A stretch of DNA of 64,000 bases from Antedon mediterranea (taxonomy: Eukaryota; Animalia; Echinodermata). A program made the position numbers and the translations under genes. Below the pieces are notes generated by a model. It ran no database searches. It was not told the DNA's origin and saw nothing but the letters and a program-made list of their open reading frames with translations. The stretch is taken from the NCBI RefSeq assembly GCF_964355755.1, contig NC_092677.1:4920101-4984100 (forward strand), given 5' to 3'. Each line of letters opens with the position of its first letter. Positions within the stretch are counted from its first letter, which is position 1. Of the stretch, positions 6,428 to 30,016 are shown piece by piece.

Positions 6428-9400
6428 ATGTATTTTCTAGTAATATTGCTGAATTTTATAACTAAGGGTAAATGTTTTTTTTTGTATTTTATCACATCTT
6501 AACATAGCAATAGAGATTTCTGCAGGTTAGAGTGCCGTTCCGTAGGTATGATCATCAGGCCTCTGATCTGACAACCCACATTAATACATGGAGCAACAAA
6601 AATAAAAAAGGCTCCTCATGTCTATGTCCTTTAGGCCCTTTTCTCACAGGCTAGATGCCTTCATCATTACTGGCGGTTTATACCGGTACAACTATTTACA
6701 TTGGACTGTTATGCTGGGAATATAACCAGTTTGAAAAGAAAAAGGGACGAGTTCGCGACACTGTTTCAATACTCAAGATTGTCACCATTTTTCAAAATCA
6801 AGAATATCACATGTACAGGTTTATTTTTACTCTAGAAATTTAACATTGTAACATATAGTAATGCAGTACTCATGAGGTAGTGTTCTTTAATTTGCAGAAG
6901 TACATGGTCAGTCGATTATAACATTTAACCAGACAGCTAAAGAAGGTGATTCTGAAGTACTGATAACTTGTGATTATTCACAATTTACTTCTACTACACC
7001 TGGTGGAATACAATGGGATGAACTAAATGAAGATGGATCTGCAATAAACCTTGTGAATGATAAGAAGTTACAAAATGGACGTTTTAAATTGAACATAAAA
7101 CCTGGGAAAGCTGACTTGGTGATGTCACAGCCAACGAGAAATGATTCTGGACAAACATTTCAGTGTGAGATACGAACAAATGGAGATATTAAAAGATCAA
7201 ACCCATCTATTTTAACTGTATATTGTGAGTAACGGATTCAATTTCAATAATTGACTATAGCATTGCATAAATATATGTATAGCATGTTTAAAAGCCACTC
7301 CTTACTCAATAACTCAGTCTATAACTCACAAATCTAAAGTATTGATAATTGTAAGACCTTGGGGATAACTGCTGCTTTATGCTTGTAATATAATCTGCCA
7401 CCATTTTTTCTTTTTACTTAACTGTATGTTCTAATAAATTGACAAATTTCCAAGAAAAATTTCTTTTTAAAAGCTCCCATTTAGTTTATTGCTGGGTAAA
7501 ATTTAAGTGACACATTTTTAATATTTTATTTTCTCCTTTCACAGACTTGAATCAACCAAATCTTAATGCAACAAATGGCATCTATAAAGGTCAATCCATG
7601 AGATTTACCTGTAGTAAATCTGGTGAGCCTACCCCTTACATTACTTGGTATAAAGATGGACAGCAAGTTAACAACTCTAGATATGAGATTGCAAATAACA
7701 GTACAGAGTCAGTTCTTAAGATTAAATCAGCTACTGAAGAAGATGGAGGGAATTATACATGTAAAGCAGAAAGTGATCAGTTTAAAGGAGAGGATGCTAA
7801 AACAAGTGTTGGAAGACATTTGACTGTATATTGTAAGTAAACATTACTTACCCTAACAAATCTGTAAAGTATATAATAAATAAAGAGCTTTTACGCACGC
7901 TCGTATTCTTAAGGACATTAGTCGTAGGTCGAGCTAAAACTTCATTCATAAACCGAACTAAATCTGTGACTAAATCAGGCCAACCTCGACTAATCGAGAC
8001 GGATTTTGATCGATTTTTTTAAGTCCTCGAGGGGGAGGCTAAATCGCCGACTAAATGGTATTTAAACAATGTTTATAAAAAATGTAACAGTTATTGAGAA
8101 ATGAAATATCTATTTTTATATTACTGTAGCTTAAAGATTTATTGTCTCCCCTGAAAAAATAATTCTTAAAACAAATTTTGATGAATATGCCATTTTAATG
8201 TAACATTATTAGTTATCCACTTTGACCAAAAATTGGATTGAAAAAAAATATATTTACCGGAAAAAATGTTTTTTTTTTTTTTTTTTTTTATAAGTGAAAA
8301 CATGATTTTTTTCGGTTTTTTTTCTATTGATGTGATAAAACTTTATTAAAACTACAAAACACAGAACATTATCTTCATTTTTCATGTTTATGAGGGACAG
8401 TACATCTTTAATTAAATATACATTGGTATATGTTATAATAATGGAAATCATCTTTATTTACAACCATATACAAATTGCATTATTTTCTTCGCGCAAGTCA
8501 GACTTGAACTATGTCACACACCACAGCGACAATGGGAGATGCGGAAATTCACCACAAAAAACCACCACCAAAAGCTCAAACTAGTACTTTTTGAAGTTGA
8601 AGAATACGAGCGTTAATTTTAATGTATATTACAGTGCATGAATGATATTTGAATAAAATTAGTGGATGCTTAGTCCACAAAAGAGAAACAAATTCGAATG
8701 AGTTAAGTTATTTGGTAATAGTCACAATGGACTTCTGTTGAGTTGTAACAATAGCTGATTAATTCATGAATACAATAGATTTAAAAAATTAACTTTTATT
8801 TTTTTACCAACAAATACTATAAATAAAAATTTATATTAAATTTTTCATATTTTAGATATTGCTGTTAATTTTACATCTGAAGATGGTATTGCAACATGTA
8901 CAGCAGATGGCCGTCCCAAGCCATCATCTGTAGTGATATTACAAGATGGAGAATTGGTTAAGAAAGGAGAAAATACATCAACTATAGAAATAGATGACAA
9001 GATATGTCAATCAAATATTACATGTAATGCAGAGAATGGACAGCTATATAAAACAGCAACACTTGAGAACTGTGAAGCAGGTAAATATGTAACATTTATG
9101 CCAGGTAGTTTTATGTAAGTTAAAATGTTCCTGAGTTAATAATTAATTTGGGATAAATATTCAGAGATAACTAGAAGAAAATTGAAACTGATTTTGCAAT
9201 CCTATGCCTACCTAGATCAATGCTCCAAAAGACTTAGTACTGTACTACTTTGTTGACACAGTTTTGTACAGAAGACCAATGGCTTAATGTCTTATCTAGA
9301 GCACAAGACAAAGTAAACCTGAGAAGTTCCTGTTGAGACAAAGCCTATTGATTTTCATGAAAATTGACATAATGTTGATATAAAGTTATCTTTGTTTTCA

Positions 9401-12400
9401 ATAGTGTGCCCTCTGTTGCCAAAAACTGTTTGTGTTTTACTGCACAGCAATTTTTTATTTATTAAGACAAAACCATAATAAATCTTCATAAAGTAACTAC
9501 CATTTGTACTTAAATACAATTGTAAATATTCAAAAAAATTTAAAAACTTCAAAATCAAATAAATCTGTTTCAAATGTATTTTTCTTAAAATTTCCATTCA
9601 AAATTTGAAGTAGTAAGAAAGGTAAGGCAGTCCAAAAATATGCCACACCCACCTCCATTTTTGGTTCCAAAGCACTTTTTTAAATTGTTTAGCATTTTCG
9701 TTTAAGCAATAATTTTGATTCAAAGTTTTGTCTCTACTTCCAAAATCACTGAGATAGGTTACATTTTTATGTTGTGAAACAAAATATCGTTTGATCAATT
9801 GTAGGCTCAAATATTAAATTGAAAAACATTTTTTTGATATGTTATTGGAATTATTAAATCATTTTTTACAGATATTTCACCAGGTTCAAGACAGTTGTAC
9901 ATCATCCTAATTGTTTTAATTATTTTATGGTTACTGCTTCTTTGTTGTAAGTAAAACCTCTAATCTCTTAATCATTTTATTCTCAATTAGCATGCATGGA
10001 CATAGAATTATCCTAAATAGTATTCACAAATTCCTCACCCCAACTTAACTCTGTCGACATAAGCGCTCTGCGCAGCTGACCACAAGTGACAGACCCACAG
10101 CGCAACATGTAAAGAATAACTATTGAAATAGGCGAGTTTTTAGGACAGATTTGAATTTAAAAGGAAATGGAGTGAGCAAGTTGGTTCCAGAACTCTGGTG
10201 CCTAAGCAAAGAAGCCCTTAGGCACGGATTTTAGCTTAGATCTAGGTGGTTTTAACATATCCGTTTAATGGTAATAATAATGGTTTCAAATTCAAATTCA
10301 AATATTCTTTATTCATCCTCTATCATGAAAATATACAACAACAATATATGAGAACATAAAAAAGATGAAAAGGAAACACATAAAAACTCAAAAGAGCTTG
10401 ATTAGTTGTGTCCCCCTATGTCCCTAACTAGCCTAAAAAACTAAAACATAAATAATAAAAAAGCTAAACCCTGGTTTAATTAGTTTGTGAAGATAATGTG
10501 GAACAGTTTCATCTTTAAGTTTGTTTTATTTATACCACTGTCGCAGCTGAAGCTGAATTACTGTGTATTTACATTAAAATGTGTTCGTTTGTTTGTTTTA
10601 TTGGTTTCTCCACACATTTTAAAATAAAAGATAAAAATTACAAATTGCAAAAAGAAAATTACAATAAACAAGAAAAACATCAAAAATGTGCGGATGGACG
10701 TCAAAATAAGTTGCGAACAACTTTAAGTCGTGACCACCAGTTAAAAAAAAAAAATGAAGGTATACAATAGCAGTCCGGCTTACATAAAAAATACAGAAGC
10801 TTAAATTGCAAAGACAATAGTACAATTACAAGATGAACAATATGATAAGGTATTCAATTCAATAAAGTGAAGAAGAAAGGAAACAAGAACAACAAGAACA
10901 GGAGATTTAGCTGCCATATGCTGCGACCAAAGACTTTTTTAGGTTAGATTTGAACAAAGGTAGATTAGGAAGAGATTTTAATGAAATACTTAATAAATTC
11001 CATAGTTTTGGACCATTATAAAAAATCGATTTTCTTCTTAAATGAAATGTATCGTTTTCAGATAAAATATTTGTTTTAGCAAATCTTGTGAATATCAGGT
11101 TGTTGTTTAGGAAATAATATGATTTGGTAAAGAGTGATTTTTTAGACGATACATAAAAATATAAGTTTGTAATTTGTGTAAATCAAATACATTAAGTATA
11201 TTAAATTTATTAAATAAGTTTTTGGTGTGAGCTATTCTGGTTGACCCTGCACAAATCCTGATAGCACGTTTTTGTAGTTTGAAGATGTTGTCAATATTGG
11301 TTGCTTCAGGACTCGTCCAGGGACACAAGTAAAGAAATTTATCAATTGTGGTAGCCCAAGATATGTTACAATAATTAATATACAGTAGGGTAAAACTAAG
11401 GTGTTATATAAAGGTAAAAGAATGTGCTGTAGGAGATAGTGCTTTAGTTTATTCATTATTCCAATGTTTCTAGAAATTATATTTGAAATATTATTACGAT
11501 GGGACTGCCAGGATAACTTTGAGTCTAGGATAACACCGAGAAATTTTGTTTCATTAACTTGTTTAATTGATTACACTATCATTAATTTTAATAACATCAG
11601 AGTCTATATTTTTTATTTTATAATTAAAAAAAATATAGTTAGTTTTATTAATATTCAAAGATAATTTATTTAAATTGAGCCAATTGGAAATCTTAACTAA
11701 TTCATTATTTGTAGTTTGCACAAGTTCAGTAATATTTTTGTGTGAAAAGAAAATGTTAGTGTCATCAGCAAAAAGAACAAAATTGTGTAAAAAGATTTAA
11801 AAACAGTAAAAATTCAAGAAACAATTGTTATAAGCGCTCACACACTGGTTCCGTTCAGTTGCTCGAAAGTTGACATAAGCGCTCTCCTGCAACTGGTTTG
11901 TTTCAGTTCGACCTAAGCTTGCATAATTTTAGAATCGTAGTGCTTAGTTTCGTTAATTATTCTTTTGGAATTTTTCTGAATTCAAGGGGAAAATATGTGT
12001 TGACTTATGATTACGCAAATTATGTAATGACGTCTAATTTTTTTTATTATGTAAGTGAGTAAGGCTTAAATAAGAGTAGAAAAAAATATAAAAAAGGCAT
12101 TTAAAATAATATTAAATATATTTACAATTCTTTTATTTAGATTTTATGCATTGTAAGAATATTGAGTGGAGTAATACAGATGTTGATATAGTGACAGTTG
12201 AAGGTGGTAAACCAGTTGAGATGAGTTGGAAATATCGTCCAAGTATTGCATGGTTCAAGAATTTTGGAATAAAGAAAGAAGACAAAATGCTTGGTTCAAA
12301 TAAAAAGCAATTCAGTAGTTGGAAAACAGTCTGCCAGTTTGTCTGTTATTGTTGTGCTTACTTTTGTGGATTCTTTTGTATTGAATACTGTAACAAATCA

Positions 12401-15400
12401 TGTAAGTTAAATTTGTGTTCATTTTATCAATACACCATTGTTTTTCTTTTCAGTTCCTTATGATAAATCATACTATTTCAAAGGGTCGAGATATAGACAG
12501 TGATGACCATTAAATTCTGGAAAGAACTTTGCACAAATTATTTTTCATGGGAAAACCTAAACTTTATACTGTAGTATTGTATTACATTACACAAGATATG
12601 TTTAATACATTTTTTTTTAGATAACAAAGATGATAAAAAACGAGAAAGCAGGTGAGTTACTTCTATTAGAATTTGTATTGAACACATGGCACAAGGTCTT
12701 TCTTGTAGTTTGATATTATTAGGTTATATGCATTATTATGCATATAACCTCTTGATTCTGTCAAAATCTTTATTTGCTTATTTATTCTTTCCTTAGCACT
12801 ATTTTGTCCGTCAATTATCTTGATATCAGTTTCATCTATCTAAGTCAATTTTTCGGAGTATAATTCCTTATGGTCAGGAATCGATGTGGTTATGTTTTCA
12901 AGGTGCGCAATCAAAAATTACGCGGTCTACGCGCGATTTAACGAAATCACGTTTGTAATCATATCTTCACAAGCATGAATTACAATTAAACAAAATTTGG
13001 TACTCATAAATTTCAGGTCATATTTCATCATATGGCAATACAATTACGTGCGTAGCGCATATAACGCATGCGTACGCGCGCTTAAAATTTTCAAAATTGT
13101 CAAAATTTATTTTTGATGAAATTAGAGTACGTTTCAGGCAATTTTAAGCGTTTAAAAAATTGCCATGAGTGCGCAAATTTTTTTTTAAACGTTAATGCGC
13201 ATTATTTTTGTCCAATTTCTGTTGTACAATCTTTCTTTAATAATATCATCATATTTTATTCACTTTTCAACGCGAAATTGCGTTATACGAGCACTTCAAA
13301 AGTGACAGGCTACGCACGTGTAAGTTAACAAAATGGTGAAAATATGCTAAATTTTTAAATTAATATAGATCGTCAGAATGCTCGGGAACACCTATTTTTT
13401 ATTTCAGTTTCTTGAAGTGTATGTATCATATGTATGATTTATTATGAAATTAATAGAACAAAAGTTTATTAAGTCATCATTAATTGCATTTTAAATTTTT
13501 TTAAATTAATTTCGACAATCAAACAAATTATGACATTTTCTTAGGCCAAAATAACAAATTAACATTAACTTTCTCCCTTAAAAAGTTCATTATATTAAAG
13601 TTAAAAGTATATAGTTTGACAGTGCATATTTTTTTTTATTTTTTCAAAATGTCATCATAGTAAAAAATTATAATTCATTGCGGTATTTAATAATCTATCT
13701 GCACCAAAGTGGTTACTGTATTGTAAATACACGGAGGAATCTTTCTACAACCTTTAGTCAGTTGTGTATGGCTTGGTGGTCTGTGCTCGTGTCTATGGCA
13801 TTCAAGGTACCGAGATCGAGTCTCACCTTGGGAAACGAAACGAAATAAGATTTTTTTTATTATCTGTATTGTTTGCTCAATGTTATTTCTTAGTGTATAG
13901 ATTATACACATGATTTATAATGAAATTATATATATTATATTTAATGTAACTTATGTCTTTATTATGTAACAAATGTGGTTTATGACATTATACGCAGAGG
14001 GATCTTTGATCGGATTTTGTATTGTGTTTGCATTAGCAAGATTCTGCTGTCATATATTATAAATAACTAGATGGTACGCTCGCTTCGCTCGCGTACCATC
14101 TAGGTCGTGCCCACAGATGGTTCTCGAATACACAGTAATTTCAGCGTAACAAAACTTTCGATTTCAAATGTACGTACCGCAGGACAAATAAATAGACAAT
14201 GTGATTTATGTACTCAACTAAAAATAGCACCCTGGGAATTACTTCCGAAAGAGAAACTTGTCACAAAATGAGACCAATTGTTTAAGTCAAATTTAAACAA
14301 ACTTAATTTGTGTTTTGTATGTAACATTAGGGTTGAGGGATGGGGAAGAGGATGGGTGGAAAGAAAGAGGAACAATTTTTAAATATATTCTTTATCTATT
14401 TAGTAACGAAATATTAATTGTTTTCATGTTTTACAAATAATATACCACTAAACACAGTAAAACATTGCGATGTAATACTTTGTTGAAACTATAACCGTCC
14501 AAGTCGATTGAAATAGTACAGTAGCCTACATGTAACGATGTAACATCACTACGACGTGTATATGTTTATATAATGTAAAACAATTTGTGAAAACCACCTC
14601 TATTTGGGGAAAATCATAAATTCGATTTGATCGTCAATAAATATTAAATTATCTAACTCAACTTAATAAGTAGGCCTAATGGTTTTCAATTGTTTCTTAG
14701 AGCCAATTCATACTTAAGTTGGTTCCTACCCTACCCACCAAAGTTGTTCTGCGTTTAGGGCATGTGATGTACCGTAGGCCTATCCTCTACTGGTTTTACA
14801 ACGCTACTCATGCCAGTGAGGGAAGGGTGATGATGTGGGTGGTTTAATTGCAATAATAAATATTTGTACATAATATACGGCGAGTGAAAACTCTAGCTCA
14901 TTATCCGTTTAAAAAAATGTATATCCAACCACTGCAGCACAGATTGGAAAAAAAATGGATCGAATTTCTGCAGGTTATGAGATATACAGTACTTGCCTTT
15001 ACGACGCCTGAGGGAATAGACGCTTGTGGAACAGAGATTGGAATGTTCCATTCATCGCAAATCAATACATTTGTATAAACGTATATTAAATCTATCAAAA
15101 TAGTATTTTTTTTAAGAAAATCGGCCTGTCTTCAACATTATGATGCTGTACTCGAGCTGTTCAACCGGTTTTCAGCCATTAAAAACAATTATCGTATGAG
15201 GAGATAGGAAAATGCGAAGCATCCTCGTATTATTGTCTGCGGGTATTTTTCAAGACGGACATCCATTAGACAGTGTATACCACGATCGAAAAACACCCCT
15301 ATTTGGGGCAAATCGTTGAACCTAAATTCGTTTTAATCGTCAATAACTAATTATCGAACTCAATTTAATTAGTAAACAGGGTTACATCAGGTGGTTAAAA

Positions 15401-18400
15401 TCAGTACCGAAAGTACGAACCAACTTTATATACCATCGAGTAAACATTCTAGAAATAACGCGCGATTTACCGAATTTTGCCCTTACGTAAATTTATATAT
15501 AGATGAAAGATTCTGAGAAAATCAATCAGTCAATATGTCTTTTAAAAATCAATTATCTTTATTTAAATCAATGCATATAACCTATAATTCGTCATAGTGA
15601 CGAATTAAATCTAGTTATCTTGTATTGTGTTAACCCTACAGCAATGGTAATAGAATTAGTGGTGAAGAGTATCATGATGGGTGTATGGTATCTTAATGAT
15701 GCAGAGATCCCTGTTGTAGTTTACCATTAGGGATTTTTTTGAGATTTTCATGTCAACTGATAACTTATGATGTCATTTTTATGATATACTACCGCCAAAT
15801 TTGAGAACTTGTTCAGTGTCATTTGCCGTTCGCTCTCTGACATGAGTATGTAGTATGACTTCATAAGACTGCAAAAGTTTACCAAAATCATGGCGGAGAA
15901 TGATCCCGAGATGATTTTCTGAGAATACAGTAAAGGGCATTTCAGTTAAATTGTATTTACAAAGTGTGAATTATTGAATTTATTGGTTATTTTTAAATAG
16001 TTTAATACTACAGGTTAGGGCCTGAGTTTTGTCACTAGGACGCTAGCCTTTGTTCAGAAAAGTAAGGATCTAGGCTAGGCCTAAGCTACAGCCTACAGAA
16101 GGAGATCCAGGAATTTTAAATAGGAAGGGTCCTTTGAGCCACAGCGAGCCCCTTCCCACCTCCTCCCTCCATAGTTGGTAAATAACACCCCCAGATGGTT
16201 GGAAATGGTACTCTCCAACAAAAAATTATGATAAATGGCACCTCTAGTTGGCCCGAAAATAACACTCCCATGTGTCGCACAACAATCAGCAAAACGATCA
16301 GAATTTTTCCGCCGTATTTTAGATGCGCGTGTTTGATCGTGCTTCACACAGAGCCGGGTGTTTTGTTTTGGTTTGCGTTACCGTACAGGCTACATGCACT
16401 CGGACTGTCAACCAATTGAACAGAGTATTCAGTCGATAATACACAGCTGTGAGGCTTCCCCCTCTTCCACTTCTCGAGTCCGCCCCTTAATCAGCCCAAT
16501 GAGACCATGTGCATGTGCTTTGGTTGTACACGCCCGATCGCGACATTTATTTTTGTACATAAGTTGGGGACCCCTCATGAAACATCACAAAATAAACATG
16601 AATATTCATTGGTCATATCCGTAAGGTGTGACGTACAAAAACAAAAATCGTTGCCTTAGCTCCAAAAGCTCTTCTAGAGATTACAAGGTCAGATCCCAAG
16701 ATCATTACATCATACATTTACTAACACGTCGACGTAAATGTCGACTCAATCTAAACGTTCATATCTGTCAATGACACATAGTGAACATTTGGTCATATCT
16801 AAAAGTTCCTATTGAGTATTATTATCTTGTATTGTGTTAACCATACAGCAGTGGTAATAGAAGTGGTGAAGAGTATCAGATGATGGTCAATGAAAGAGAA
16901 TGTCCTGATGTGCCAACAGTCTCTGGTATCTCTGGACCACCAGCAGGAGTCTCTGGTATCTCTGGACCACCAGCAGGAGTCTCTGGTACCTCTGGACCAC
17001 CAGCAGGAATCTCTGGTACCTCTGGACCACCAGCAGGAGTCTTTGGTACCTCTGGACCACCAGCAGCAGTCTCTGGTATCTCTGGACAACCAGCAGCAGT
17101 ATCTGAATCTGAACAAAAGTTAGAGGTTGGTTAATAAATAGGGAGGTTGCGCAATGCTACAAATACGATAAATAAAACGTATTTGTTTTCGTTAGCCAGT
17201 AACAATCAGTTTCGCATAGCAATGAAATATTGAGGGTGCCGTCCAAAAAATATGCCTGTGGTAAATTTGAACGAAGTGCAGGTACGTGTTGCTTGGCCAT
17301 CTAGGCCAAGCATAACAACAGAGCAAGTAAGGAATTTTCAATTGACGTGACATTTTTCGTAAAAAACTTTCAATAAATTATCTATGATTATATTACAATC
17401 ATGAATCATTATTGTCTCAAATCAAAATGTGAAAAATAGATCAAAAACTATACTTGTTTTGTAGTTACGATTATGGTGATATTCGTCAATATGCTTTACG
17501 AATATGAAATGGGCATCAGCTCAAAAGTTTTAAAAATGTGTGAAATTATCGTATTCGTTCAAACAATTAAACAGACAAACAAACAAATTAAATAGAGTTT
17601 GTGAGAGTATATTTGAAAGCATTATATTCCTAACATTCTTCTACTTATTCACAGATAACTCCTGATGATGCTGAGGATGATGAAGGTAGTAAACTTTTAG
17701 CAGAACCTCAAGGACCATCTCATGGAAATGAAATTGTTACTGAAGGGGAAGGTAAACTTTGTTATTTTATAGAATACTTATAATACTGGTTCAACAATTA
17801 TTGTTTCTTACTATTATACATTTCCAAATATTAGTTCAGTTTTTAAAAAAAAGTGTAGGCCTACATTAGATCTGTCATTCGCATATCCTTTCATTCAATC
17901 AATAAACATAGCTAATTTGGTTAAACTTATGTATACATGTACTTTTGTTTTTCCAATTGACCCAAAATATTCCATAATGCTGTTTCTACATTATTAAATG
18001 GCATTTGTTTTGGTTTTTTTTTAAATTTATTTTTAACTATGCTGTACGAAAGAATTATTTTTCCATAGTTCTATACATTCCAATTGATTTATTTTTAAAT
18101 TTATTAATCGATTTGGTTAAGTATGTTGTTATTCCTTGGTCAATATATTAGCCCTTCTGTTTGTTTACTGTTTATGTATTATATTATTTTTTGTTTATTG
18201 TTAATATAGCAAACGACTCAAACAGGTAATTAATTTGTGGTTTTATATCCAGCAAAGCTTCTTGTTAAAATTGCTTACTCTTTTAAATTCAACAAATGTT
18301 AACTGGCGTTTTATCGTCTAGCGTTGTTTATCCTATGGCGCTGATGAGTTGGTATGGCGCTAGCAATATAAAAAAAGAGGAGGGGGCACGTCCTTTTGGA

Positions 18401-21400
18401 CCTATTGGTGGCGCCAAAGAAACTCATCGTTGTCATTGGCCTAATTGTTGCCTGGGTTGGGCTCTATAGTATTCATCTACCATATATTATCAAATAAACT
18501 TTTTGAGGTTAGAATCTTAACTACTTACTGTACTTGACTAGCTGTCTCTACCACTTTATAAATGATGTATATCACTGTTAATTAATTTTATTTAAATGTT
18601 TGGCATTTTAATTTTCACATGCTTAAATTGGTTTGGTTTCTGTCTTCTACAAATTAAGTTGAAAAAAAAAACAACTATTATCTGATAGTTATCTGAATTT
18701 GGTCTACTACTACTATGTTTACTAATGCAAAATCAATTTGTTTGTGAGCAAATTGCATTTTTATAACATTGTTTAAAGGCTTCAATATACATATAATGGT
18801 TCTTCTGTTGTAACTTTGGTCTTCAAAAACCCTACTTTCACTTTTACAGTTTTACTTCCTTTTCTTATAAAATTGGGCTTGTTCGTACTTTGATTGACAG
18901 AGTTTACAAATTGAATAATTCCTGGTCTAGCTTTAACAATGACATTTCAACTTTTAAAACCATTTTAAGTAAAAACTGTTTTCCACAACATTTACAGATA
19001 TCTTAATAATGTTTTCTCTCCCTGCAATGTTGCGTCAGTTGAGTCGATTATTGAACAAAACAAGGTTCTTTATTTTAAATTACCTTACTTACAGTTTGCC
19101 AAATGCGCACAACAAAGAATCGATAAAATTACACGTAAATATTGCAAAGGTATTAATATTAAATTAGCTTTCAAATCATTTAACATTTCAAACTTGTTTA
19201 GTCTTAAGGACCCGGTCCCCGATATGTTCCGCTCTCGTGTTTATATAAATTTAAATGTATGGGATGTAATTCTATGTATATTGGTGAAACCAATAGACGG
19301 TTGTCAATGCGGGTGCGTGAACATTTCAGGGACAAGGCTTCTCACATTTTTCAACATCTGCAGATTCCGCTTTCAAACTTAAGGTCAAGGAAGCCCTCCA
19401 CATCACGTGGAGTAAACCTTCCCTGAACAAACAAATCTATAACTTAGGCGTCACACTTACCATATAATTGTTTGTTGCTTACATTCCTTGTTGTTTTATT
19501 ATGCTAATTACTTGCTTATTTACATACAATATGTCCTATTCGTATATAAGCACTCTAGGCGTTGTTTACGGTTCTGATGATGAGAATAGTTTCTCGAAAC
19601 ATGTCACATTTTAAGGCAGTTTGCCTTTTCATTGAATGCCTCGCTATAGTAATTTTAACTTGTAAGTTTGGTGGTATTATTCATGATTTATCTAACATAT
19701 AATATAATTTTTAATGGTAAACTAAAGTTAACACAGTGTGTACCAGCTTTTATCTTAAATTTTAGGTTATGCTTTGTGAAGAGTGGTCTGCTTCATTACA
19801 CTTTGCAATATTTAAACTTAAGTGGATTTTATTCTGCAGTGTGAATTTTTTGTCCTCACTTTATTTACCAGTGTTACCGCTGTAACATTGTACGTTATCT
19901 GAAAATATTGCAGTGTAAAAGTGCATAATAAAAAATCATGGAATTTGACCATACTGTATGTTTTAAACATAAATTAAATTAATCCGTTCCCTGATTATTT
20001 TTTTTTTTATATAGATCTCAAAGTTCATACACAAGTAAGTAACAGATATCATATTTGTAATATAACATTTTACAATATTACATAACATTTACATTAACAT
20101 TACATTTTATATTGATTTTAAAAATTGGAAATAATAACTCTTGTTGTCTTCAATATCAAAATATATATATATTATGCTCATTGATTGTAAGGTATAATCC
20201 ATTTTCCAGTGGTGATGTACTAGAAATTGTATCTTCAACACAAATGATATGTACACACCATGACCCTGACAATCCTGACAAATTTGTGTTGTTAAACAAT
20301 GTGGCTACTTTGATTGCATGCGGATAACTTCAGAAGGGAAGTTGATCTGAAACAATATTTCTACAATATGGCATGAAATAAATAAGAAAGAACAAGTTAA
20401 ACTTGATAGGTATTATAACCCTAACCCTAACCCTAAGCTTCCAAAGTGAGGAAATTGCGTTTTGCGAATTTCTAAGAACCACGCCTCTTTTTTACATATC
20501 ATATAAGGCGATCCTATTACCGGTACAATAGTAAATCATATTTCTAGAGTTTTGTCAAAATTTGAGGCAATCGCGCAGGGCTTTTTTTAAATTTAGAAAT
20601 TGGCCCTATTATTTGTTTTTCCGTATCTTGGGAGAAATTTATTTGATTAAACATTCTACCAAATTACACCTAAAAAACACCTCTCTCAAATTAATGCCTC
20701 CCTCAAATAAACCCCCCCCCCCCCCCCTAAAAACACTCCCAAAAAATTATAATAAATACGGTAATGACCATGCAAACAGAAACACAGTAATAAATAAAAT
20801 TTACTTTCAAATTACATTAAGAAATTAAATTGACATGTCTGCATTCATTTTCCTTAGCAAATGGTAGAGGAAGCATCAGCCTAACACTTTTAAATCCTGC
20901 AAGATCTGATTCAGGGAAGTACAGCTGTAGTATAGAGGGCAGTAGACAGCAGTGTCCAGGTGTTAAGAATTTATTTGTTAATTGTGAGTTTTATTTCTGG
21001 AAATGAACTTCATAAAAATACAAAAAAGAACCATTTGATAATCTTATAAACTTATACAACATAATGAAAAAAGTCAAGGTTTAATAATTGTCCTGTTTTG
21101 AGTAACACAACATAATAAACACAATTAATATATTTTGTATGTATATTAAGTATACATTATTAATGCTTTTAACAAAAATGTTCATGAATTTTAAAAGAAA
21201 AATTACAATTGTATTGGCTCAAATTTATACGACACAGCTGGTGACTAACTGCAGAGTAATCGCTGCCCATGATTACTTTGAAACTAAAATAAATTTTTCT
21301 ACGAATATTAAGATACTGAGATGGTAGATCACAAGTATTCAACAGAAGAAGATATCAGTAATTTTAAAATGAAGTGCAGATATGGACCAGCAGATATGCC

Positions 21401-24400
21401 ATTAACAGGTTACAAGTGGAAGAAGATTAAGGAAGATGGCACAACAGAGATTGAGGATTGTTATAAAGATTCTAGATTTGAAGTAACAAGTTACCAAAAT
21501 AGCATTCTGTCTTTGAAGATAAAGAATGTTGTACTTGATGATGCTGGCAAGTATCAATGTGAAGTGAAGCCAGTTGATGGAGAAAAGAAGCTGGAAGATA
21601 CTACACAGCTAATAGTGAAGAAAGGTAATTGTAATCTGTATTTTACTTGCCAACAAAATTGCAAATACTTTATTTTATAAAGAAATTAATGAAAAATGTT
21701 TTGTTTCTTCATTTTGTTTTATAGACCTTGTTATAATGAATATTCCTGCTGTTACTACTAATGAAGGTAGGAATTCTGATCAATTGTTGCTTAACCTTAT
21801 GTGGGTTGGTGATGCTGCTGCAATATCCAATACATGTTGGTATAAGAAAGTTGAAGGTGGAGAGAAGGAACTGCTGACATCGTTGTAATAATATGTAATC
21901 TAATGTTGAAAGTTAAAAACATTTGTTTTCTTAAAACTGTAAATCCTAAATTAATTATGAAGTGACCTAAAATAAACAAAGACGGACTTTTGAATTTAGA
22001 TCCGTCTTCTATAGTAGTTTTGATCTTCGGCCTAAAATTTAAAAAAAGGAAAAAAAGCAATAAAAATAATGTTAAAAACAATAGTTTTAGCAACTACAGG
22101 GATCTTTAAGAAAACTGGTTTGTGGACTAATTTTGTTTTCATTTTGTCATACAATTTGATTAGACAATATTTTTGAGTGTATAATGAACTAATTTCATCC
22201 AATATATCATACTCACAGGTATCACAATGAATGATAATCTTGTTACACTTGGAGAAAAGGGTATTTTAACTTGCAAGTATAAAATTAAGGATAAAGTAGA
22301 AGTTGTCAATTGGTGTAAGAAGAAAGAAAACAAGTTGATATTTACTTCTGATGAATCTCAACAAAAGAAGATAGAAAAAGTGCCTAAAAGATGTAAAGCA
22401 ACTTATAAGTCTAATGAAACAAGCTTAGAGTTTGAGAAAGTGGAATTCACTGATGCTGGAGAGTATATATGTGAACTTAAGCCGAAGAAACACAATATTA
22501 ACTTTATTCCAGACAGAATTAGAAGAAAATTATCATTTTCTTCACCCCATACAAAATCAGCACACTTACGTGTACAGTGTAAGTAGATTGGTGGAGATTT
22601 CTATAGGTCTCTATGAAAATAAAATAAATATATTGCCTGCATTAAAAATATTGCCAAATTTTTAAATAAGTAAAATAACATATGACCAATTACTCAACTT
22701 CCTGATGCTACTCCACTTCATGGTATGTAATTCATAACAAATTATGACACTTATGACTGCATATTCAATAATATTTTAATAAATATTTTGGTTTTATAGT
22801 TAATGTGTTTACTGCAGCTGATTATGAACACGATAACACATACAGGTAAATGCATGGTTCTTTAAGTTGAATGTTAAAGTGTTGCTAACCAATTGGTTTT
22901 GAACAATACCATGAAAGCCCTAGTGGTCTAATAGTTAGGTCATCTGCTTTGTCATCAAGCAGAATTATTTTAATAAAAACCGTAATATATATTGGTTTTT
23001 TTTTAAATAATTTGTCAGAGTACTTTGATTTTTTTTTATTTCATTTGCTTTATTCAATATCGGCTCATTACAATTACAACAGAAAACATAAAAATATATA
23101 ATGAAATAAAAAGCCAGGATTGTCAAAAGCGAACCCAATCACTGTTTAAAGATTTTCCTTTAACAGAAATACAATATAATAAATAATAATATAGGCTAAA
23201 TGACGGTTAAAAAAAAAATATATTTAAAAAGCAAAATAAAGAAAAAAAATGGTTAAATTAAAATCTAAGACTCAAATCAAAAGGAAGAGAGGCAATGAGA
23301 GGAGAAATCAGGAATGGAAATAGGCGAAGACTAGTCACAAAATCTCGAAACCTGCTAAGGAGAGCAAGGTCTCTTAAATCAGAGGGAAGACCATTCCAAA
23401 GTTTACAGAATCTAGGAAAGAGTGAAGATTGACAGTTCGAGCAAAGGGTGGCCTAATTTATCAGGGGGCGAGTGCACTTATATTATACTTACTCATCCCA
23501 TGCACATTAGTATATAACCACATATTTAAAAAACAGGTTACTGCAGTATACTGTTAATTTGTATCCATTTTGTTCTCTTATTTTATAGACGTCCTGCAGT
23601 AGTTTTTATAAATTCTCATGTTCTTGTCTTTGTTGAGAAAAATAACTCAGATGTAATATTGAGAAGGGGAAAGATGAACATAAAGAGTTTGATTGAATGG
23701 GAAGAATCAAGAGTTATTTTACACGAAGAAGATAAAAGGTATTACATTTGAGTATGACAGTTATCTTGTCTTTAAAAAGTTGGGGTGTTTTTTTAACAGC
23801 AAGGGTGGGTTTGGGGAACACACCATGGATTTTAATTAATAATTAAATAAATTAAATACTTTGTGAACAATCTTAGGCTAATTAGCCATCTGGAAATTCA
23901 GGCTTTCAGAGCAATGATTTACAAACATATGTACTATAAAAATATTTCTGATTTTTTTATTCATTCTATGTAAGAAACACTAATAGAAACACTTTTTTTT
24001 TTGGCTATCCACAATCCATATGTGTGTGCTATGTATGTAATGAAAATGATGTGAATGAAGTTTGGAATTGGAATTTGAAGGTTTCCAATATTTTTAAGTA
24101 GAAACAAAAAATTGAAAACATGAAAATGATTAAAATATGCCAAGTGTGTGTTTGTTTTTACTTATACTATTTACCATACAGCTTTCAGAATCTAGTACCA
24201 ATTGTAACACACAACGGAAAGGTGATTCTAATGTGTGTTAAACAAAATAAAAACACAAAAGACTGGAATACAATAAAGATAGAAACTGATGATTATGGAA
24301 ACAATTGGAAAGAACCATTTGATGTAAAATTTCCATCAAAAATCGAAGAAATTACATCCCTCCTATGTGAGTATAGGCATGACCTATTCATGGCTTGTAT

Positions 24401-27368
24401 AAAATGTGATAGTTTTGGGAGTTGCCATGGCTAAACTGGCTATGCTGTGCATAATATCTGAGCTGTGCATATGAATGTCACTGAATTTCAAATATTAAAA
24501 TGTTCTTTTCTGCCATTAATGTGCTGGTAAAATGTTTTTGATAGTTGTAAATATTATCTATTGAATGTCTACAGTAATTGTACTTTCCTACTTTAAATTA
24601 CAATCAAATACTGACTAACCTGATAATCTATAAAGAAGAATAATGCAATTAAAACTAATAATTTGAAAATATCACTTATTCTTTTTCTCCAAAATAATAT
24701 TTTGTTATAGTTTAAAGATGTATTGTCCCTTGAAACACAAAAAAAAAAAAAAAAAAATATTCTACATTTAAATTAGCCATATCAAAGTAATATTAAAGTT
24801 ATTCACTTTAAGTCGAAAATTTGAGCCAAAAACAACAAGTTTACGTAATTAACAGGTAAATTAATTAGATTACATTTCGTCTGGGAAATCGTCGCAAGCG
24901 AAAGTAAACAAAGATTTCAAACCATGAGTATGCATTATGCATGATGCTAATTAGGATTGTTTACAACTCGTCACGGTTGAAAAGGTGTTTTTACACAGAT
25001 CGCGAAGAAGTTTTATGATTATGCATACAGAGTAGCCAAACAAGCGCGTTGCATTATGAGATATGTTTTGATTGAAAACTTTGACTGGAAGTCAAAGTTA
25101 TTTTTTGAACAAAAAAACATCTGTATTTCGGTTAAATTTTTTTTTTTTCGACTAATTTTTGGTGAAAGTTAATAACTATTATGATACTTCAAAATGACCC
25201 CCTTTTTTTGAAAATTAAAAAAAAATAAATTTTTTTTTAATTAGTCAAAGGGCATCTGATCTCTTTAAAAAATACCAAAATTAAATAAAAGTACTACAAA
25301 CTATAAAAGTAAATTTTTATCTTTTTGTTTTAACATATATTATACACATACATTTTTTTTAGGCATTGATGGTGTTTGCTTAGAGTCAGGGAATCTGGTT
25401 CTTGCAGGAGTTTGCAATATCGACAATAATGGCAGTAAAGAAAGTAATTATTTAGAAAATTTGAATATTATTATTTATACTTGTATTGTATTAGCTTTTT
25501 ATAACAGACCCTGGCATTACACATGACATTCACTTATTTTAACACACATATTTTCTATAAATACTTTTTATAGAAATAAAAATAGGCTATTGAATTAGAA
25601 TCTATTTCTTTATAGAATTATCCTGACCCTGGTTTAAAGTCCCATTCCCTACATTTTTTTTATCTCATTTAAGGTCACTAAGTACATTTAATGTAAAAGT
25701 AAATACTATATGGTCCTATTGAGATAACTTTTTTCGTCTTTAAACGTTTAAAAATGTGAAAAATAAGTGGATTCTAATAATTTTAGCGTCCCGCTATAAA
25801 TCCCAACATGCATTGTGTACAGATTGATATTTTCGTTTTTCTTCTGTAATTCACCCACTTTTCGATCGATCGTGAGGCCAAAACAATGGAAGACTTTTTC
25901 AGTGAAAGTACCGGTTTTCCCCAATTTATATCAACGGATTCTGGCAAAAACAGAAAGACAATCAATGCAGCAACTATACAACGTCAGGCTAGGCCTATAG
26001 CTAGCATACGATGTTCGTACATTACCGATGTTTACCAGCTAGGCCTACAAAACTAAGCCTAGCTAGGCTAGGCCTAAAGACCGTCCACGAGAGGACATTT
26101 ACCGTGAGCTACATTTAAGACAAGGATTGACCTGGTTTAATGTTTTTAAAGTTATATATATGCATTATTTTTACAAAACGTCACAAATTGTAGGGAATGG
26201 GTCTTTAAATAATAAGTTGTGTTTTTCATTTCAAAACACTCACACTCAATGTAATATCACAAAAAATTGTATACACTGGGACATTTGTCAGAAAAGTACA
26301 CATGATTCAGAAAATATTTTGTTGGCCCAGCATTAATACTTTTATATGAAAATACATATGCGGTAATTTTGCATCTGTCATGAGCTATTAACAGTCATAA
26401 GAAATATAAATTATTTGTGTTGTTTTTGTAGGAAGCCTACTTGTAATAATAAGTACGGATGATGGTGACAACTGTAACATTGAACATGTTATTAAACTAC
26501 AAGTTACATCAGGAATACATACACAAGTAAGAATACGAGTGAATTCTCTTTTCATACAATAAAATGTTTTTAATTAACACACTCGTATAATGATTTTTAT
26601 TACCTGTAGGTTGTTGAATATGGTCAAGATCAAGTTTACATCATCTGTACATTGGAAGATGATAGTACGCATCTTTTTATTATAAACAGCAAGGATGGAT
26701 GTAAAACAGTTGATGTTGTGAATGAGAAAGAAGAGACAAATCTCGAATGCCAGGTATGCGATGTTATTTTGTATCTCTAGTGGCTACTGTCATTTCTTTG
26801 TCATATTCTATAAAGCACTACTACTTTATGCATTACACTCGTACACATTGTATGTGTTACCTCCGCCAGAAAGACGAGAGGTTATGTTGCCTAGGCCTAG
26901 ATCGAGATTTGCGCTTTCTGTGTGCACTTTTAGTAATTTATATTTAAATAGTATATAAATTAATAGTCTTATTTTTACTCGCATTTATCAACACACAATG
27001 ATTATTTAAACTATATTTGCCTTATTTATGGTACATAAATTACGTTGTCATTTAAAATCTCTTAGAGTGGTATTATACCAACAAAGACAGATGAGTTCTA
27101 CCAAATAGCAATGGCAAGTCATGGAAATGAAACAAATAAGGATCTTACACTTTACTTAAGTGAAGATGGTTGTAAAACCTGGTCTAAGTTTAACACACTA
27201 GGTGCAGTGAATGCAGAAGAATCTGACCTAGCTTACTACAGTGTAAAAGAAGGGGAAGAAGAAGCAGAAGGAATAGTGTGTGTTTACAGTTATGGTTCAG
27301 AAACAGAGGGGTATAATATTGGAATGCAGTTGATTTCTAAGAAAGAAATTAAGCAAACAGAAATATAA
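6428..27368 (+). CDS. IgSF membrane receptor gene B, long form: SP-IgV-IgI-Ig-like-TM-(split Ig with Cys-rich segment)-Ig-Ig-sialidase-like domain
   Basis: Exons 6428-6467 (MYFLVILLNFITK), 6898-7224, 7545-7832, 8856-9080, 9872-9946 (TM LYIILIVLIILWLLLLC), 12141-12401, 12621-12651, 16849-17125, 17655-17751, 20858-20983, 21313-21624, 21725-21766, 22219-22578, 22800-22845, 23589-23738, 24182-24366, 25363-25443, 26432-26526, 26610-26753, 27066-27368 (TAA). Every junction is GT-AG and phase-compatible with no internal stop. Which internal exons co-occur in one mRNA is inferred. Confidence 0.75.
8135..8407. mobile_element. Kolobok-like MITE (TTAA TSD, AG...CT termini)
   Basis: ttaa|agatttattgtctccc ... 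gggacagtacatct|ttaa; same TIR family at 6079-6183, 24716-25264, 37763-38121 and from 63099. Confidence 0.65.
10285..11790 (-). mobile_element. 5'-truncated, decayed LINE (CR1/L2-group RT C-terminus plus 3' UTR)
   Basis: Minus strand FADDTN, KFLGVILDSKLSW, LYNTLVLPY, LQKRAIRI with frameshifts; ends in AATAAA and (ATTTGA)n tail. Confidence 0.85.
12721..15614 (+). mobile_element. Non-autonomous Helentron/HINE-like element containing a nested Helitron
   Basis: 5' palindrome aggttatatgcat-tatt-atgcatataacct, matching subterminal repeat at 15571-15583, 3' hairpin aattcgtca-tag-tgacgaatt, then CTAG. Confidence 0.65.
14067..15503 (-). mobile_element. Non-autonomous Helitron, copy 1
   Basis: Minus strand A|TCTATATATA start, GC-rich hairpin atggtacgc...gcgtaccat next to terminal CTAG|T, no TSD; collinear with 34622-36110. 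Confidence 0.85.
16919..17100 (+). repeat. Coding 30-bp tandem repeat, about 6 units (VSGISGPPAG), in a gene B tail exon
   Basis: gtctctggtatctctggaccaccagcagga repeated; frame fixed by flanking splice phases. Confidence 0.9.
18820..19660 (+). mobile_element. Decayed Penelope-like element (RT thumb plus GIY-YIG endonuclease plus 3' repeat)
   Basis: GLVRTLIDRVYKLNN..ILSKNCFP, YFKLPYL, YKFKCMGCNSMYIGETNRRLSMRVREH, LKVKEALHITWSKPSLNKQ across frameshifts and deletions. Confidence 0.85.
19565..19612 (+). ncRNA. Minimal hammerhead ribozyme motif of the Penelope element, probably degenerate
   Basis: CTGATGA-t-GAGAA-tagt-TTCTC-GAAA-CATG-TC; palindromic helix III; helix I pairs poorly. Confidence 0.55.
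20015..20197 (+). CDS. Alternative terminal exons of gene B, short form ending DLKVHTQ-V* (or -W*)
   Basis: Micro-exon 20015-20034 with strong acceptor and gtaagt donor, phase 1 to 0; next acceptors give GTA TAA (20192) or TGG TGA (20210); AATAAA at 20377-20382. Confidence 0.55.
22800..27368 (+). CDS. Sialidase (GH33, NEU2/3/4-like) beta-propeller domain of about 330 aa, predicted catalytically inactive
   Basis: Seven exons give in order TYRRPAVV..VFVEK..VILRRG..IEW, FQNLVPI, Asp-box TDDYGNNW, GVCLESGNLVL, STDDGDN, SKDGCKT, ECQSGI, DLTLYLSEDGCKTWS, SDLA, collinear with animal sialidases. Confidence 0.85.
23030..23460 (-). mobile_element. LINE 3' end fragment
   Basis: Minus strand KLWNGLPSDLRDL motif, then UTR, AATAAA and A-rich tail. 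Confidence 0.6.
24716..25264. mobile_element. Kolobok-like MITE
   Basis: ttaa|agatgtattgtcccttga ... tcaaagggcatctgatctct|ttaa. Confidence 0.65.
25638..26204. mobile_element. Kolobok-like MITE, second family
   Basis: ttaa|agtcccattccctaca ... tgtagggaatgggtct|ttaa. Confidence 0.75.
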
Positions 27369-27639
27369 AAATTCTGAGAAGAGAATGTTGGGTGGGGGTG
27401 GAGATCATATTTTTTCTTTTTTGTGTTGTATTAACCACATAACATCAATGACAAATTTCAGTTGTTGAGAATATACATGTGACAAAAACTGCTTGACTTA
27501 TAACACAGATAATTAAAATAATATTGTTTATAGAGAAGCAAGTAGTTTAGACTCTTCAGTAAAATCTAGAATGTTGATTTTAATGTGTACTATAATACTA
27601 TTTTTAATCCAGTGACTTGCTTAATAATGTACTTGTCTA

Positions 27640-30016
27640 TGTTATGGTTCAGTGATTTTGTTTGATTTTTTGATAATGGAATAGCCCATGGGGAATGGGA
27701 ACCCTGCTGGACACCCAAGCCTAGAGAGCGGTATCCAAGGAGACATCTTTCTCTTTGGCCTGGGTGACTGGCAGGGAGAGGTGTGTTCTACTTGCTATAA
27801 AGCAAATAATAAGTCAAGTCAAGTCAAGTATCATAAATGCTAAAATGTATAAGTAAATTAAACTGCTATAAACTGAGCCTGTTTTGCTTGCCTGTTTTGC
27901 TTGCCTGTTTATATTCCAATAAATGTTTGTTGTGAGATCAAATCAAGACGATTTACCTGGTACAGTATCATTATTGTTGCACGTGTCAACCGCAATCCCA
28001 CACAAGTTAGGGAGGCTGGAGCCTTTTACAGTGGTGTCAGAAGTGGGATTGAACACAAGACAAGATAAAGGTAAAAAGTACGTTATTCAAGGAAGCAGCT
28101 CCAGTTTATGGAAGACCTTAGTTTATGGAAGAATATTATATACTATGGCTATGGAAAACGGAGAAGGTCCTTCTACACAGGAGATTTTACAAACAAATGC
28201 AATACAGCGATCATATTGTGTATTCAAATAATATATGTAATTGAATTCCGTTACATGCCCTGACTGGAAAGAAAACTAGAAATGCGGGGAAGGGAAACTA
28301 TACAACAAGCCCATCAAGTGGCAAAAGATAGCATTGAACGGAAACTAGGAAACTCGACACTGAAGCAAAATATACATAAGATGAGTCCACAACTGAGCGT
28401 TGGAGATCGTGTACTGTTGAAAAGGTGTGCTTTTGAAGGCAGACACAAGTTAGAAGACAAGTTTCATCACGATGCCTACATCATAGTTTGGGTTAACGAC
28501 GCTGGAGACGTTTACAAGATTCGGCCTCTCCTGGGTGGCCCAACAAGTACTGTAAATAGAAAACTCTTAATTGTTGATCCAAGGGAAGCAACAACTGAAG
28601 ACATTGTAGGAAGCGACTCAGATGAAGAAGATGATATGCCAACCTGGGTATTTACACATCATGACTTACCACAGCAGGATGCAATACACCAACCAGTAGG
28701 AACACAACTCAGACGATCATCAAGATCAACTAGAGGTTTTCATAGTAACCCTGAGAAATGGCCAAAGTCTACAGTTTCTCGCCATTAAGTGTTGACTTAC
28801 TTTATGAACTTGTATTTTACGTATGCACACCTTCTATTGTTTTGTGCTACTTTTCTGTAATTGTTAAACCATTTTAAGCTAAATAATCTATGATGATAAA
28901 GTGTTTAGTGTTCATCAATCTTTACTGCATAAGAGTTATTGTTATAATTATGTTACTATTGTTTACCTAATTGTTAATAGGTATTTAAGTTTATGAGTAC
29001 AGCATGTTATGGTGTCATAATATGGTATTTTGAAAATAATTAGGTACACACAGGTTCTTGTATCATGTAACATGAGATGTATTTATAGATGATTGAAAAG
29101 TTGATAATAATGGTTTAAAGTACCACAATCTCTGGAGCTTGTATTATATAATGTACTGATCTGTCACAGGGTAATGATTATAGGGTAACCTGTGAGTTGT
29201 AGTTATAGTTTTTGGGGTATGAAGCCGTATGGTGGCACCTATTGGATTGGTCATGCTCCTTGAGCTGTTAGTTGTGTTGGAAAGCAGTCTTATGGGTGAA
29301 CCTTTAGCAGTGGTCATGAGGTGCGATCAGAACTTTACTGATCGGGTGAGTGTCATGGTAACAAGGGCCATGATGGGTGGACTCGCATTGGAAATTCCTC
29401 ATACTTCTGCTATTGAGAGGGACCGTACTGGCTCCGTATTTAGTATCTTCACTTTAACAGTTGGCATGACATGATGGTTAGGAGTCCATTGCAGAATGTC
29501 TTAACGGGGAGTGGCATCCCAATGCTATTTCAACCAACAATCGGGTATCTAATAATCAGTATACTTTTATATTGCGACAGTGTGTCAGATTACAATACTT
29601 GGGGGCCAAGTATAGTCATCACGGGGAACATGTTATGGTTCAGTGATTTTGTTTGATTTTTTGATAATGGAATAGCCCATGGGGAATGGGAACCCTGCTG
29701 GACACCCAAGCCTAGAGAGCGGTATCCAAGGAGACATCTTTCTCTTTGGCCTGGGTGACTGGCAGGGAGAGGTGTGTTCTACTTGCTATAAAGCAAATAA
29801 TAAGTCAAGTCAAGTATCATAAATGCTAAAATGTATAAGTAAATTAAACTGCTATAAACTGAGCCTGTTTTGCTTGCCTGTTTTGCTTGCCTGTTTATAT
29901 TCCAATAAATGTTTGTTGTGAGATCAAATCAAGACGATTTACCTGGTACAGTATCATTATTGTTGCACGTGTCAACCGCAATCCCACACAAGTTAGGGAG
30001 GCTGGAGCCTTTTACA
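27640..30016 (+). mobile_element. Young non-autonomous Ty3/Gypsy LTR element with large internal deletion
   Basis: LTRs 27640-28030 and 29631-30016 (TG...CA, differ visibly only by one 5-bp repeat unit), TCTA TSD, tRNA-Leu PBS TGGTGTCAGAAGTGGGATT at 28032-28050, purine tract before the 3' LTR. Confidence 0.95.
28282..28788 (+). pseudogene. Integrase C-terminal remnant of the deleted LTR element
   Basis: LSVGDRVLLKR..GRHKLEDKF..YII..VYKIRP..VNRKLL..LRRSSRSTRG; no gag, RT or RNase H present. Confidence 0.8.

Follow-up and report, generated by a model that had tools for sequence, protein, structure and literature searches.

A probably inactive sialidase-like propeller at the end of a predicted immunoglobulin receptor in a feather star

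The window analysed here, a stretch of 64,000 nucleotides from contig NC_092677.1 of the feather star Antedon mediterranea, contains on its forward strand a gene that appears to encode an immunoglobulin (Ig) receptor ending in a sialidase-like propeller. A 22-exon GT-AG model of this gene (6428-27368) exactly reproduces the RefSeq protein XP_071958647.1 (P0001, 1166 aa), and the frame is kept across all 21 of its junctions. The predicted order of parts is signal peptide, three Ig domains, transmembrane (TM) helix, half an Ig domain, Cys-rich helix, disordered insert, the other Ig half, two Ig domains and propeller. Exon 1 of the reconstruction (6428..6467) holds the start codon and a signal peptide predicted by eye (aa 1-13). 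It is followed at 6898..9080 by three ectodomain Ig exons rich in N-glycosylation sequons (6898-7224, V-set; 7545-7832, I-set; 8856-9080) and by the TM exon (9872..9946), whose helix lies at about aa 302-320 (hydropathy 3.1) and spans 300-323 in the structure model. Exon 12141..12401 encodes the N-terminal half of a split Ig domain (aa 324-378) together with the Cys-rich helix (aa 381-402), and exon 20858..20983 encodes the C-terminal half; the two halves, which flank the Cys-rich helix, match positions 2-45 and 57-103 of the family Ig profile, respectively, with additive scores. Between them, five small exons at 12621..20034 (12621-12651, 16849-17125, 17655-17751, 18210-18225 and 20015-20034) encode the disordered insert, in which EEYQMM at 16874-16885 is a YxxM motif. 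Two post-TM Ig exons (21313-21624 and 22219-22578) and a 42-bp linker exon (21725-21766), together at 21313..22578, lead into the propeller. The RefSeq models predict that TM helix and propeller belong to one protein, five of them linking the two (P0001, P0005, P0006, P0154 and P0171).

The interruption of an Ig domain between strands (12141-20983), by the Cys-rich helix and a disordered insert of 94-174 residues, recurs in 6/6 paralogues scored. The insert of P0001 also contains a coding 30-bp tandem repeat (16890-17105) in which a 10-residue Gly/Ser/Pro unit occurs about seven times; the repeat is absent from the six aligned paralogues. In P0154 and P0171 a tail Ig domain contains a different repeat, of 8 residues.

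Seven exons between 22800 and 27368, with AG/GT ends throughout, continue the frame of Ig exon 22219-22578 and encode 334 aa in a single frame with no internal stop. The product corresponds to residues 833-1166, the C-terminus of P0001. An earlier note on this DNA, made from its letters alone, had described these exons as an intact reading frame encoding a sialidase pseudoenzyme, and the frame is as it described. The first of the seven (22800..22845) carries the first two bases of the codon for Arg848, the one retained Arg of the sialidase triad, and the second (23589..23738) encodes the motifs YRRP and VEKN and has lost the loop of the acid/base Asp. The one canonical Asp box lies in the third exon (24182..24366), which is followed by a fourth at 25363..25443. 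The catalytic Glu site is His1016 (26518-26520) in the fifth exon (26432..26526), the second triad Arg site is Thr1032 (26649-26651) in the sixth (26610..26753), and the seventh (27066..27368), which ends in the stop codon, holds Asn1090 (27135-27137) at the third triad Arg site and Glu1118 (27219-27221) at the Tyr site. A protein search with the last exon returned eight matches, all from A. mediterranea, of which one (P0001) was at 100% identity.

Pfam BNR_2 covers residues 867-1118 with 57.8 bits, against a cut-off of 31.4; single exons alone reached only E 0.02-0.2. The domain is predicted to be a six-bladed propeller: AlphaFold2, given a 74-row alignment, returns the sialidase propeller fold with a predicted local distance difference test (pLDDT) score of 89.3 and a predicted template modelling (pTM) score of 0.91. 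The top structural match of this model is human NEU2 (Foldseek E 1.8e-13; Z 35.1, root-mean-square deviation 2.6 over 317 residues), followed by bacterial sialidases (Z 33.4) and mouse NEU1 (Z 32.5). With profile A1, human NEU2 was not among 15 PDB matches; the copy from the crinoid Anneissia japonica, used as query, did retrieve NEU2. The earlier note held that the Asp boxes are kept, which is true only in part: inspection by eye gives one canonical box and three degenerate ones, of which one lacks its Trp, and a pattern search matched two. Two loops on the top face are shortened relative to active enzymes.

According to the available part of PMC3431349, R21, R237, R304, Y334, E218 and D46 are essential residues, conserved without exception among the animal sialidases that it covers, a set restricted to sequences having those six residues. 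In the propeller described here only R21 remains, as R848 within YRRP, in which the Ile of the motif is replaced by Arg. R237 is T1032, R304 is N1090, Y334 is E1118, E218 is H1016 and the D46 loop is deleted; R41 and E355 align with N866 and S1141. All of the motifs quoted in the earlier note (YRRP, VEKN, HTQ, VYIICT, NKDL, EESDL and VYS) are present and aligned where it had placed them, and the four catalytic losses that it listed are borne out. Its count was incomplete, as the loop of acid/base Asp46 is also missing and five of the six essential residues are therefore gone. Among 41 comparison sialidases, chosen from single-domain-sized matches among the 150 matches listed, R21 is kept in 38, R237 in 41, R304 in 40, Y334 in 40, E218 in 41 and D46 in 37; the five residues lost here, present in 37-41 of the 41, occur in 0/13 rows of the family to which the domain belongs, some of these rows being truncated. 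The same pattern was obtained with alignment A2 (8 family rows, 66 others). Although placement of individual residues on NEU2 sites rests on sequence alignment, the six assignments agree among a MAFFT alignment, alignment A2 and three pairwise matrices. Neither a Tyr within four residues of the Y334 site nor a Glu close to the E218 site appears in the alignment, and the possibility that an alignment error conceals the catalytic residues was ruled out on these grounds. In the sequence, Asp869 lies near the D46 site and Lys1091 next to the R304 site. Given established sialidase chemistry and the missing catalytic residues, sialidase activity has almost certainly been lost, a conclusion common to every mechanism considered below, and the identification of the domain as a pseudoenzyme is supported.

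We take I22, E39, R41, N86, Q270 and E355 of NEU2 to be pocket positions. Pocket charge was counted at 17 positions, 11 of them from the accessible part of PMC3431349, mapped via P0054 aligned to NEU2, with a poorly aligned E111 column. Net charge is +1 here, -2 to +1 in nine family members and -2 to 0 in six active enzymes, and these counts do not support the suggestion that the pocket may have become acidic. The pocket has lost three Arg, but also D46, E218 and E355; it retains R848, E864 and N901 and gains an Arg or His at the I22 site and His1016. R848, N901 and H1016 are invariant in 9/9 domains, E864 is kept in 8/9, and the I22 site is Arg or His in 8/9. Four residues that depart from the active consensus, H1016, C916, C1031 and Q1018, do not vary within the family. 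The domain as a whole, unlike the pocket, is acidic in this copy (56 D/E, 31 K/R), whereas the Anneissia copy is balanced (43/42).

Transcript evidence came from X1, a run guessed to be RNA (no RNA run is on record), set beside a DNA run, X2. Two junctions of the pseudo-sialidase domain are spliced in X1. One contig skips 26751-27064 (intron 6), with GT..AG ends, joining exons 6 and 7 of the domain, and this skip is absent from X2; another matches exon 5 with no differences and has a loose end that is the 3' end of exon 4. A further contig spans 24183-24367, over exon 3. Depth in X1 is zero across unique intron bins, and one contig retains 22 intron bases ahead of exon 6. In X1 and X2 alike, related contigs are much more numerous on exon 7 than on exons 5-6, which hints that close copies are many or that the last exon has been homogenised; summed contig depth is not equivalent to copy number.

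A profile search retrieved ten proteins below 1e-30, with the next match at 2.6e-21; all ten are from A. mediterranea or Anneissia japonica, and P0017, from the same two species, is a partial eleventh member. D46, E218, R237, R304 and Y334 are absent from all 13 family rows. The E218 site is His in 11/11 covering rows and the R237 site is Ser in ten and Thr here; the D46 loop is deleted in the Antedon copies, Anneissia has Thr/Ser at the D46 site, and the R304 and Y334 sites, N and E here, are F and S/C in Anneissia. Because the same five losses occur in Antedon paralogues and in A. japonica, at an identity of 32-44% between the two species, the domain is, as judged by alignment, part of an old crinoid family related to the animal NEU2-5 sialidases. 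Forty-eight positions are invariant in the nine full domains, and over 313 columns conservation is correlated with that in active enzymes (Spearman 0.36). On the terminal branch leading to this copy (length 0.38), a rough estimate that ignores indels gives 8.2 stops expected under neutrality, and none is seen. A pseudogene was ruled out by this contrast, the open frame and the spliced contigs. The dead state shared by two crinoid species at 36-44% identity, the intact fold, the open frame and the spliced transcripts together lend indirect support to the earlier suggestion that the fold is retained for a non-enzymatic role.

In a 51-row tree the ten family rows are monophyletic (100/100) and sister to two intact crinoid sialidases, P0014 and P0013 (98/93), with a long stem (1.55). 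A split at 100/100 separates the family and the animal NEU2-5 sequences from 31 other sialidases, among rows that include no identified NEU1, and P0011 matches NEU2 in PDB at 6e-11 with no NEU1 chain matched. The nearest sequences are intact enzymes of A. mediterranea (XP_071940874.1, P0014) and A. japonica (XP_033099279.1), identity to the intact crinoid enzyme being 25%. P0014 has all six catalytic residues and starts with MGxxxS, which we take to be a myristoylation-like motif. In the Atlas, the Anneissia copy adjoins chordate sialidase clusters, and the RefSeq name 'sialidase-3-like' given to the Anneissia member XP_033114277.1 is misleading. Since the echinoderm members of the NEU2-5 lineage are termed NEU5 in the available part of PMC3431349, we infer that the parent was a NEU5-type enzyme. 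No V- or I-set Ig appeared among the best five Pfam families of 51 non-family matches (the intact crinoid enzyme and 50 long proteins), and so no active fusion of Ig and sialidase was seen in that set.

Judged from sequence features, the tail and propeller are probably cytosolic. On the RefSeq model, N-terminal Ig domains are followed by one TM helix, as in a type I Ig-superfamily receptor, and sequons fall at 34/90 Asn sites before the TM helix versus 42/233 after it (p 0.0004, counted over five related paralogues that are not independent). The EEYxMM motif is found in 5/7 paralogues. The Cys-rich helix (379-405 in the structure model) has seven Cys, six of them on one face of a helical wheel, and Cys clustered on one helix face are seen in palmitoylated helices. 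This stretch is the only hydrophobic one besides the TM helix (Kyte-Doolittle 1.77); its summed insertion scale is unfavourable (+1.8 versus -6.5 for the TM helix), and model P0171 lacks it yet keeps the whole tail. An Atlas search with residues 296-420 gave no usable match, and P0001 has no B30.2/SPRY match in Pfam at E 0.01.

The insert of isoform P0169 contains three motifs resembling the immunoreceptor tyrosine-based inhibitory or switch motifs (ITIM, ITSM; shuffle p 0.003). They lie at residues 505-563, in an alternatively included 80-residue segment that is absent from isoform P0168. A scan of 12400-20860 for unannotated ITIM micro-exons found no candidate.

On balance, we favour the reading that the dead propeller is a cytosolic partner-docking module, and not an enzyme, that ends the signalling tail of an Ig receptor. 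In this scenario, duplication of a crinoid NEU2-5-type gene, its fusion behind an Ig tail and its inactivation would all predate the split between Antedon and Anneissia, and the fused gene would have been multiplied afterwards as part of the receptor cluster. A ligand would be bound by the three outer Ig domains, a lipid anchor could hold the Cys-rich helix at the inner leaflet, and SH2 proteins may be recruited to tyrosine motifs of the disordered insert. The propeller would be held out by the Ig rod, and its top face, opened by the shortening of two loops and bearing the invariant Arg848, Asn901 and His1016, would bind a cytosolic protein; this binding role is an inference. A wider proposal, possible but doubtful, is that crinoids have variable Ig receptors in which a cytoplasmic Ig rod, with one domain split by a lipid-anchored Cys helix and an insert bearing tyrosine motifs, carries a dead sialidase that uses its remodelled Arg/His pocket to sense a phospho-partner or ligand in the cytosol, an independently evolved design for butyrophilin-like inside-out or scaffold signalling. 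If correct, this would place such signalling in an immune or self-recognition system of an invertebrate deuterostome.

Several observations weigh against a cytosolic docking module. No RNA contig joins the TM exons to the propeller exons, and in Anneissia, where the models have a later start, no link to a TM helix is seen; a search for TM-bearing Anneissia relatives with P0017 residues 1-270 returned only P0017 itself, which is weak evidence. The insert of P0001 has no ITIM, its sole match (at 1121) being a propeller strand, and the cytosolic flank of the TM helix has little positive charge. AlphaFold leaves the split Ig domain unfolded (pLDDT <50 at 324-383 and 397-591; 24-row alignment). Top-face loops of the Antedon propellers have sequons in common (N866 in 7/7, the N1087 site in 5/7) and several tail Ig domains keep paired Cys, both of which would suit an extracellular domain. 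Recent constraint on the propeller may be weak, because nine of ten single-base differences between exon 7 and contigs of at least 92% identity are non-synonymous (p 0.34 under neutrality, p 0.017 under a ratio of non-synonymous to synonymous substitution rates, dN/dS, of 0.3); this count excludes one four-base cluster, and the contigs may include broken copies, one having a 98-base deletion. As to descent, placement of the family outside the ten sampled animal enzymes is not rejected by an approximately unbiased (AU) test (p 0.21).

The sequons and paired Cys speak for an unlikely alternative, in which the Cys-rich stretch is a second membrane span and the tail and propeller lie outside the cell, serving as an adhesion head or lectin in the manner of inactive trans-sialidases or viral attachment propellers. 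The stretch is indeed hydrophobic and helical, and the accessible portion of PMC3515882 describes the inactive Trypanosoma cruzi trans-sialidase as a lectin; however, the stretch inserts unfavourably by comparison with the TM helix, is missing from P0171, lies inside a split Ig domain and is followed by Lys-rich sequence and tyrosine motifs, sequons are not in excess after the TM helix, and loss of two triad Arg and of R41 argues against binding of sialic acid in particular. By analogy, the propeller might instead be a cytosolic small-molecule sensor, with binding of a phospho-group or anionic metabolite in the remodelled pocket leading to inside-out signalling, which we regard as quite unlikely. 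The B30.2 domain of butyrophilin 3A1 signals inside-out, and the architecture of Ig, TM helix and cytosolic beta domain, together with the residues invariant or nearly so in the family pocket, would fit such a role, but the R304 and Y334 sites differ between the two species and the invariant residues may be structural. Chemistry of a new kind, with a His/Cys/Glu or metal site making the domain a different enzyme, is hardly credible: the four family-invariant residues that depart from the active consensus could suggest it, but the Glu at the Tyr site is confined to Antedon, and no known catalytic constellation was identified.

Two further explanations concern the integrity of the gene. It is improbable that the gene model fuses two genes, one for an Ig-TM receptor and one for a separate soluble Ig-propeller protein, as the lack of a bridging RNA contig, the absence of a TM helix from P0002, P0003, P0004, P0008, P0010, P0011 and P0017 and the absence of a propeller from P0168-P0170 might suggest. 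Five models join TM helix and propeller, 21/21 junctions are GT-AG and in frame, and one Ig domain is split over the central exons, so that both parts of the gene belong to one fold. That the domain is a passenger under relaxed selection, drifting to loss, is very improbable, even though the exon-7 differences are closer to the neutral expectation, a related copy in a DNA contig has the 98-base deletion, some models are truncated and this copy lacks one Asp-box Trp. The frame is open although about eight stops are expected, the core is conserved between two species, the fold is confidently predicted and the gene is spliced.

The cytosolic docking module that we favour has partial counterparts among known systems. 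Butyrophilins have an Ig ectodomain, one TM helix and a C-terminal beta-rich cytosolic domain, and are encoded in a multigene cluster; the layout here would be the same if the predicted topology holds, but B30.2 is unrelated to sialidases and butyrophilins have no tandem cytosolic Ig domains or split Ig, so the analogy is functional only. Siglec/CD33-like ITIM receptors have a V-set first domain, a TM helix and tyrosine motifs. These features are shared here (the tyrosine motifs by some paralogues), as are fast-evolving ectodomains, but the crinoid protein differs in its long folded tail, ITIM-like motifs occur in some isoforms only, and homology amounts to generic Ig matches. With the animal GH33 enzymes NEU2/3/4/5, of which human NEU2 is the nearest structure, the domain shares the six-bladed propeller, YRxP, Asp-box remnants and an xSDL motif; it differs in the loss of five of six residues, two shortened top loops and fusion behind Ig domains and a TM helix.

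The inactive T. cruzi trans-sialidase (Tyr342His; PDB 3pjq was among the structural matches) is likewise a sialidase fold without normal catalysis that is used for binding, as far as the available text of PMC3515882 describes it. In that protein a single substitution is involved and the molecule, on the parasite surface, still binds sialoside, whereas the crinoid domain, which probably lies in the cytosol, has lost most of the site; of the carboxylate-binding Arg triad of the sialic-acid lectin type, two of three are lost. Bat influenza N10 and N11 similarly have a neuraminidase fold in which the active site is strongly altered and activity could not be detected (PMC4456350, in the part available), but belong to the viral GH34 fold lineage, are extracellular and have an unrelated origin. 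Non-catalytic sialidase folds are thus documented in parasites and viruses. A literature search in which subscription coverage was limited returned no report of such a fold in an animal, no Ig receptor ending in a sialidase fold and no description of this family; the term 'pseudosialidase', in the text available for the papers that use it, appears to concern carbohydrate enzymology and was set aside. The domain would thus be of a known kind, a pseudo-glycosidase, in an architecture, an Ig receptor ending in a dead sialidase, that was found nowhere else in that search. How a glycosidase pocket is rebuilt after catalysis has been given up can be followed along the natural series that the family offers, and the same genome supplies a control in the intact parent enzyme. 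The family also brings to light a clustered, fast-evolving set of Ig receptors that carry tyrosine signalling motifs, in a group, the crinoids, in which immune receptors have been little studied.

Three related sets of Ig ectodomain exons, each without a sialidase domain in the window, accompany the gene: one with two V-set exons at 970-3480 (reverse strand), one at 33400-36520 (reverse strand) with a TM-like exon recognised by eye at about 33230-33280 (-), and one at 54900-57900 (forward strand) with a TM-like exon, also by eye, at about 57800-57897 (+). Among the ectodomain exons of the Ig-TM relatives in the window, dN/dS is 0.31-0.85 in 21/22 pairs and 1.54 in one; in comparisons with the main gene it is 0.36-0.82, with one pair at 1.54. 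This pattern is as expected of recognition receptors.

The rest of the window contains several repeated elements. Just past the propeller stop codon, a duplicate of about 390 bp at 100% identity (27639-28030 and 29630-30016) surrounds a 174-aa frame that has no Pfam match, and 27639-30016 is likely a young non-autonomous long terminal repeat (LTR) element. An LTR retrotransposon on the reverse strand (48508-54563) has near-identical LTRs (99-100%), a protease and an integrase ahead of reverse transcriptase and RNase H, and it is broken into several frames; we take this order of domains to be Gmr1-like. Between these two elements, at 40164-45361, lies an array of long direct and inverted repeats that are 91-99% identical, with arms of up to 388 bp.

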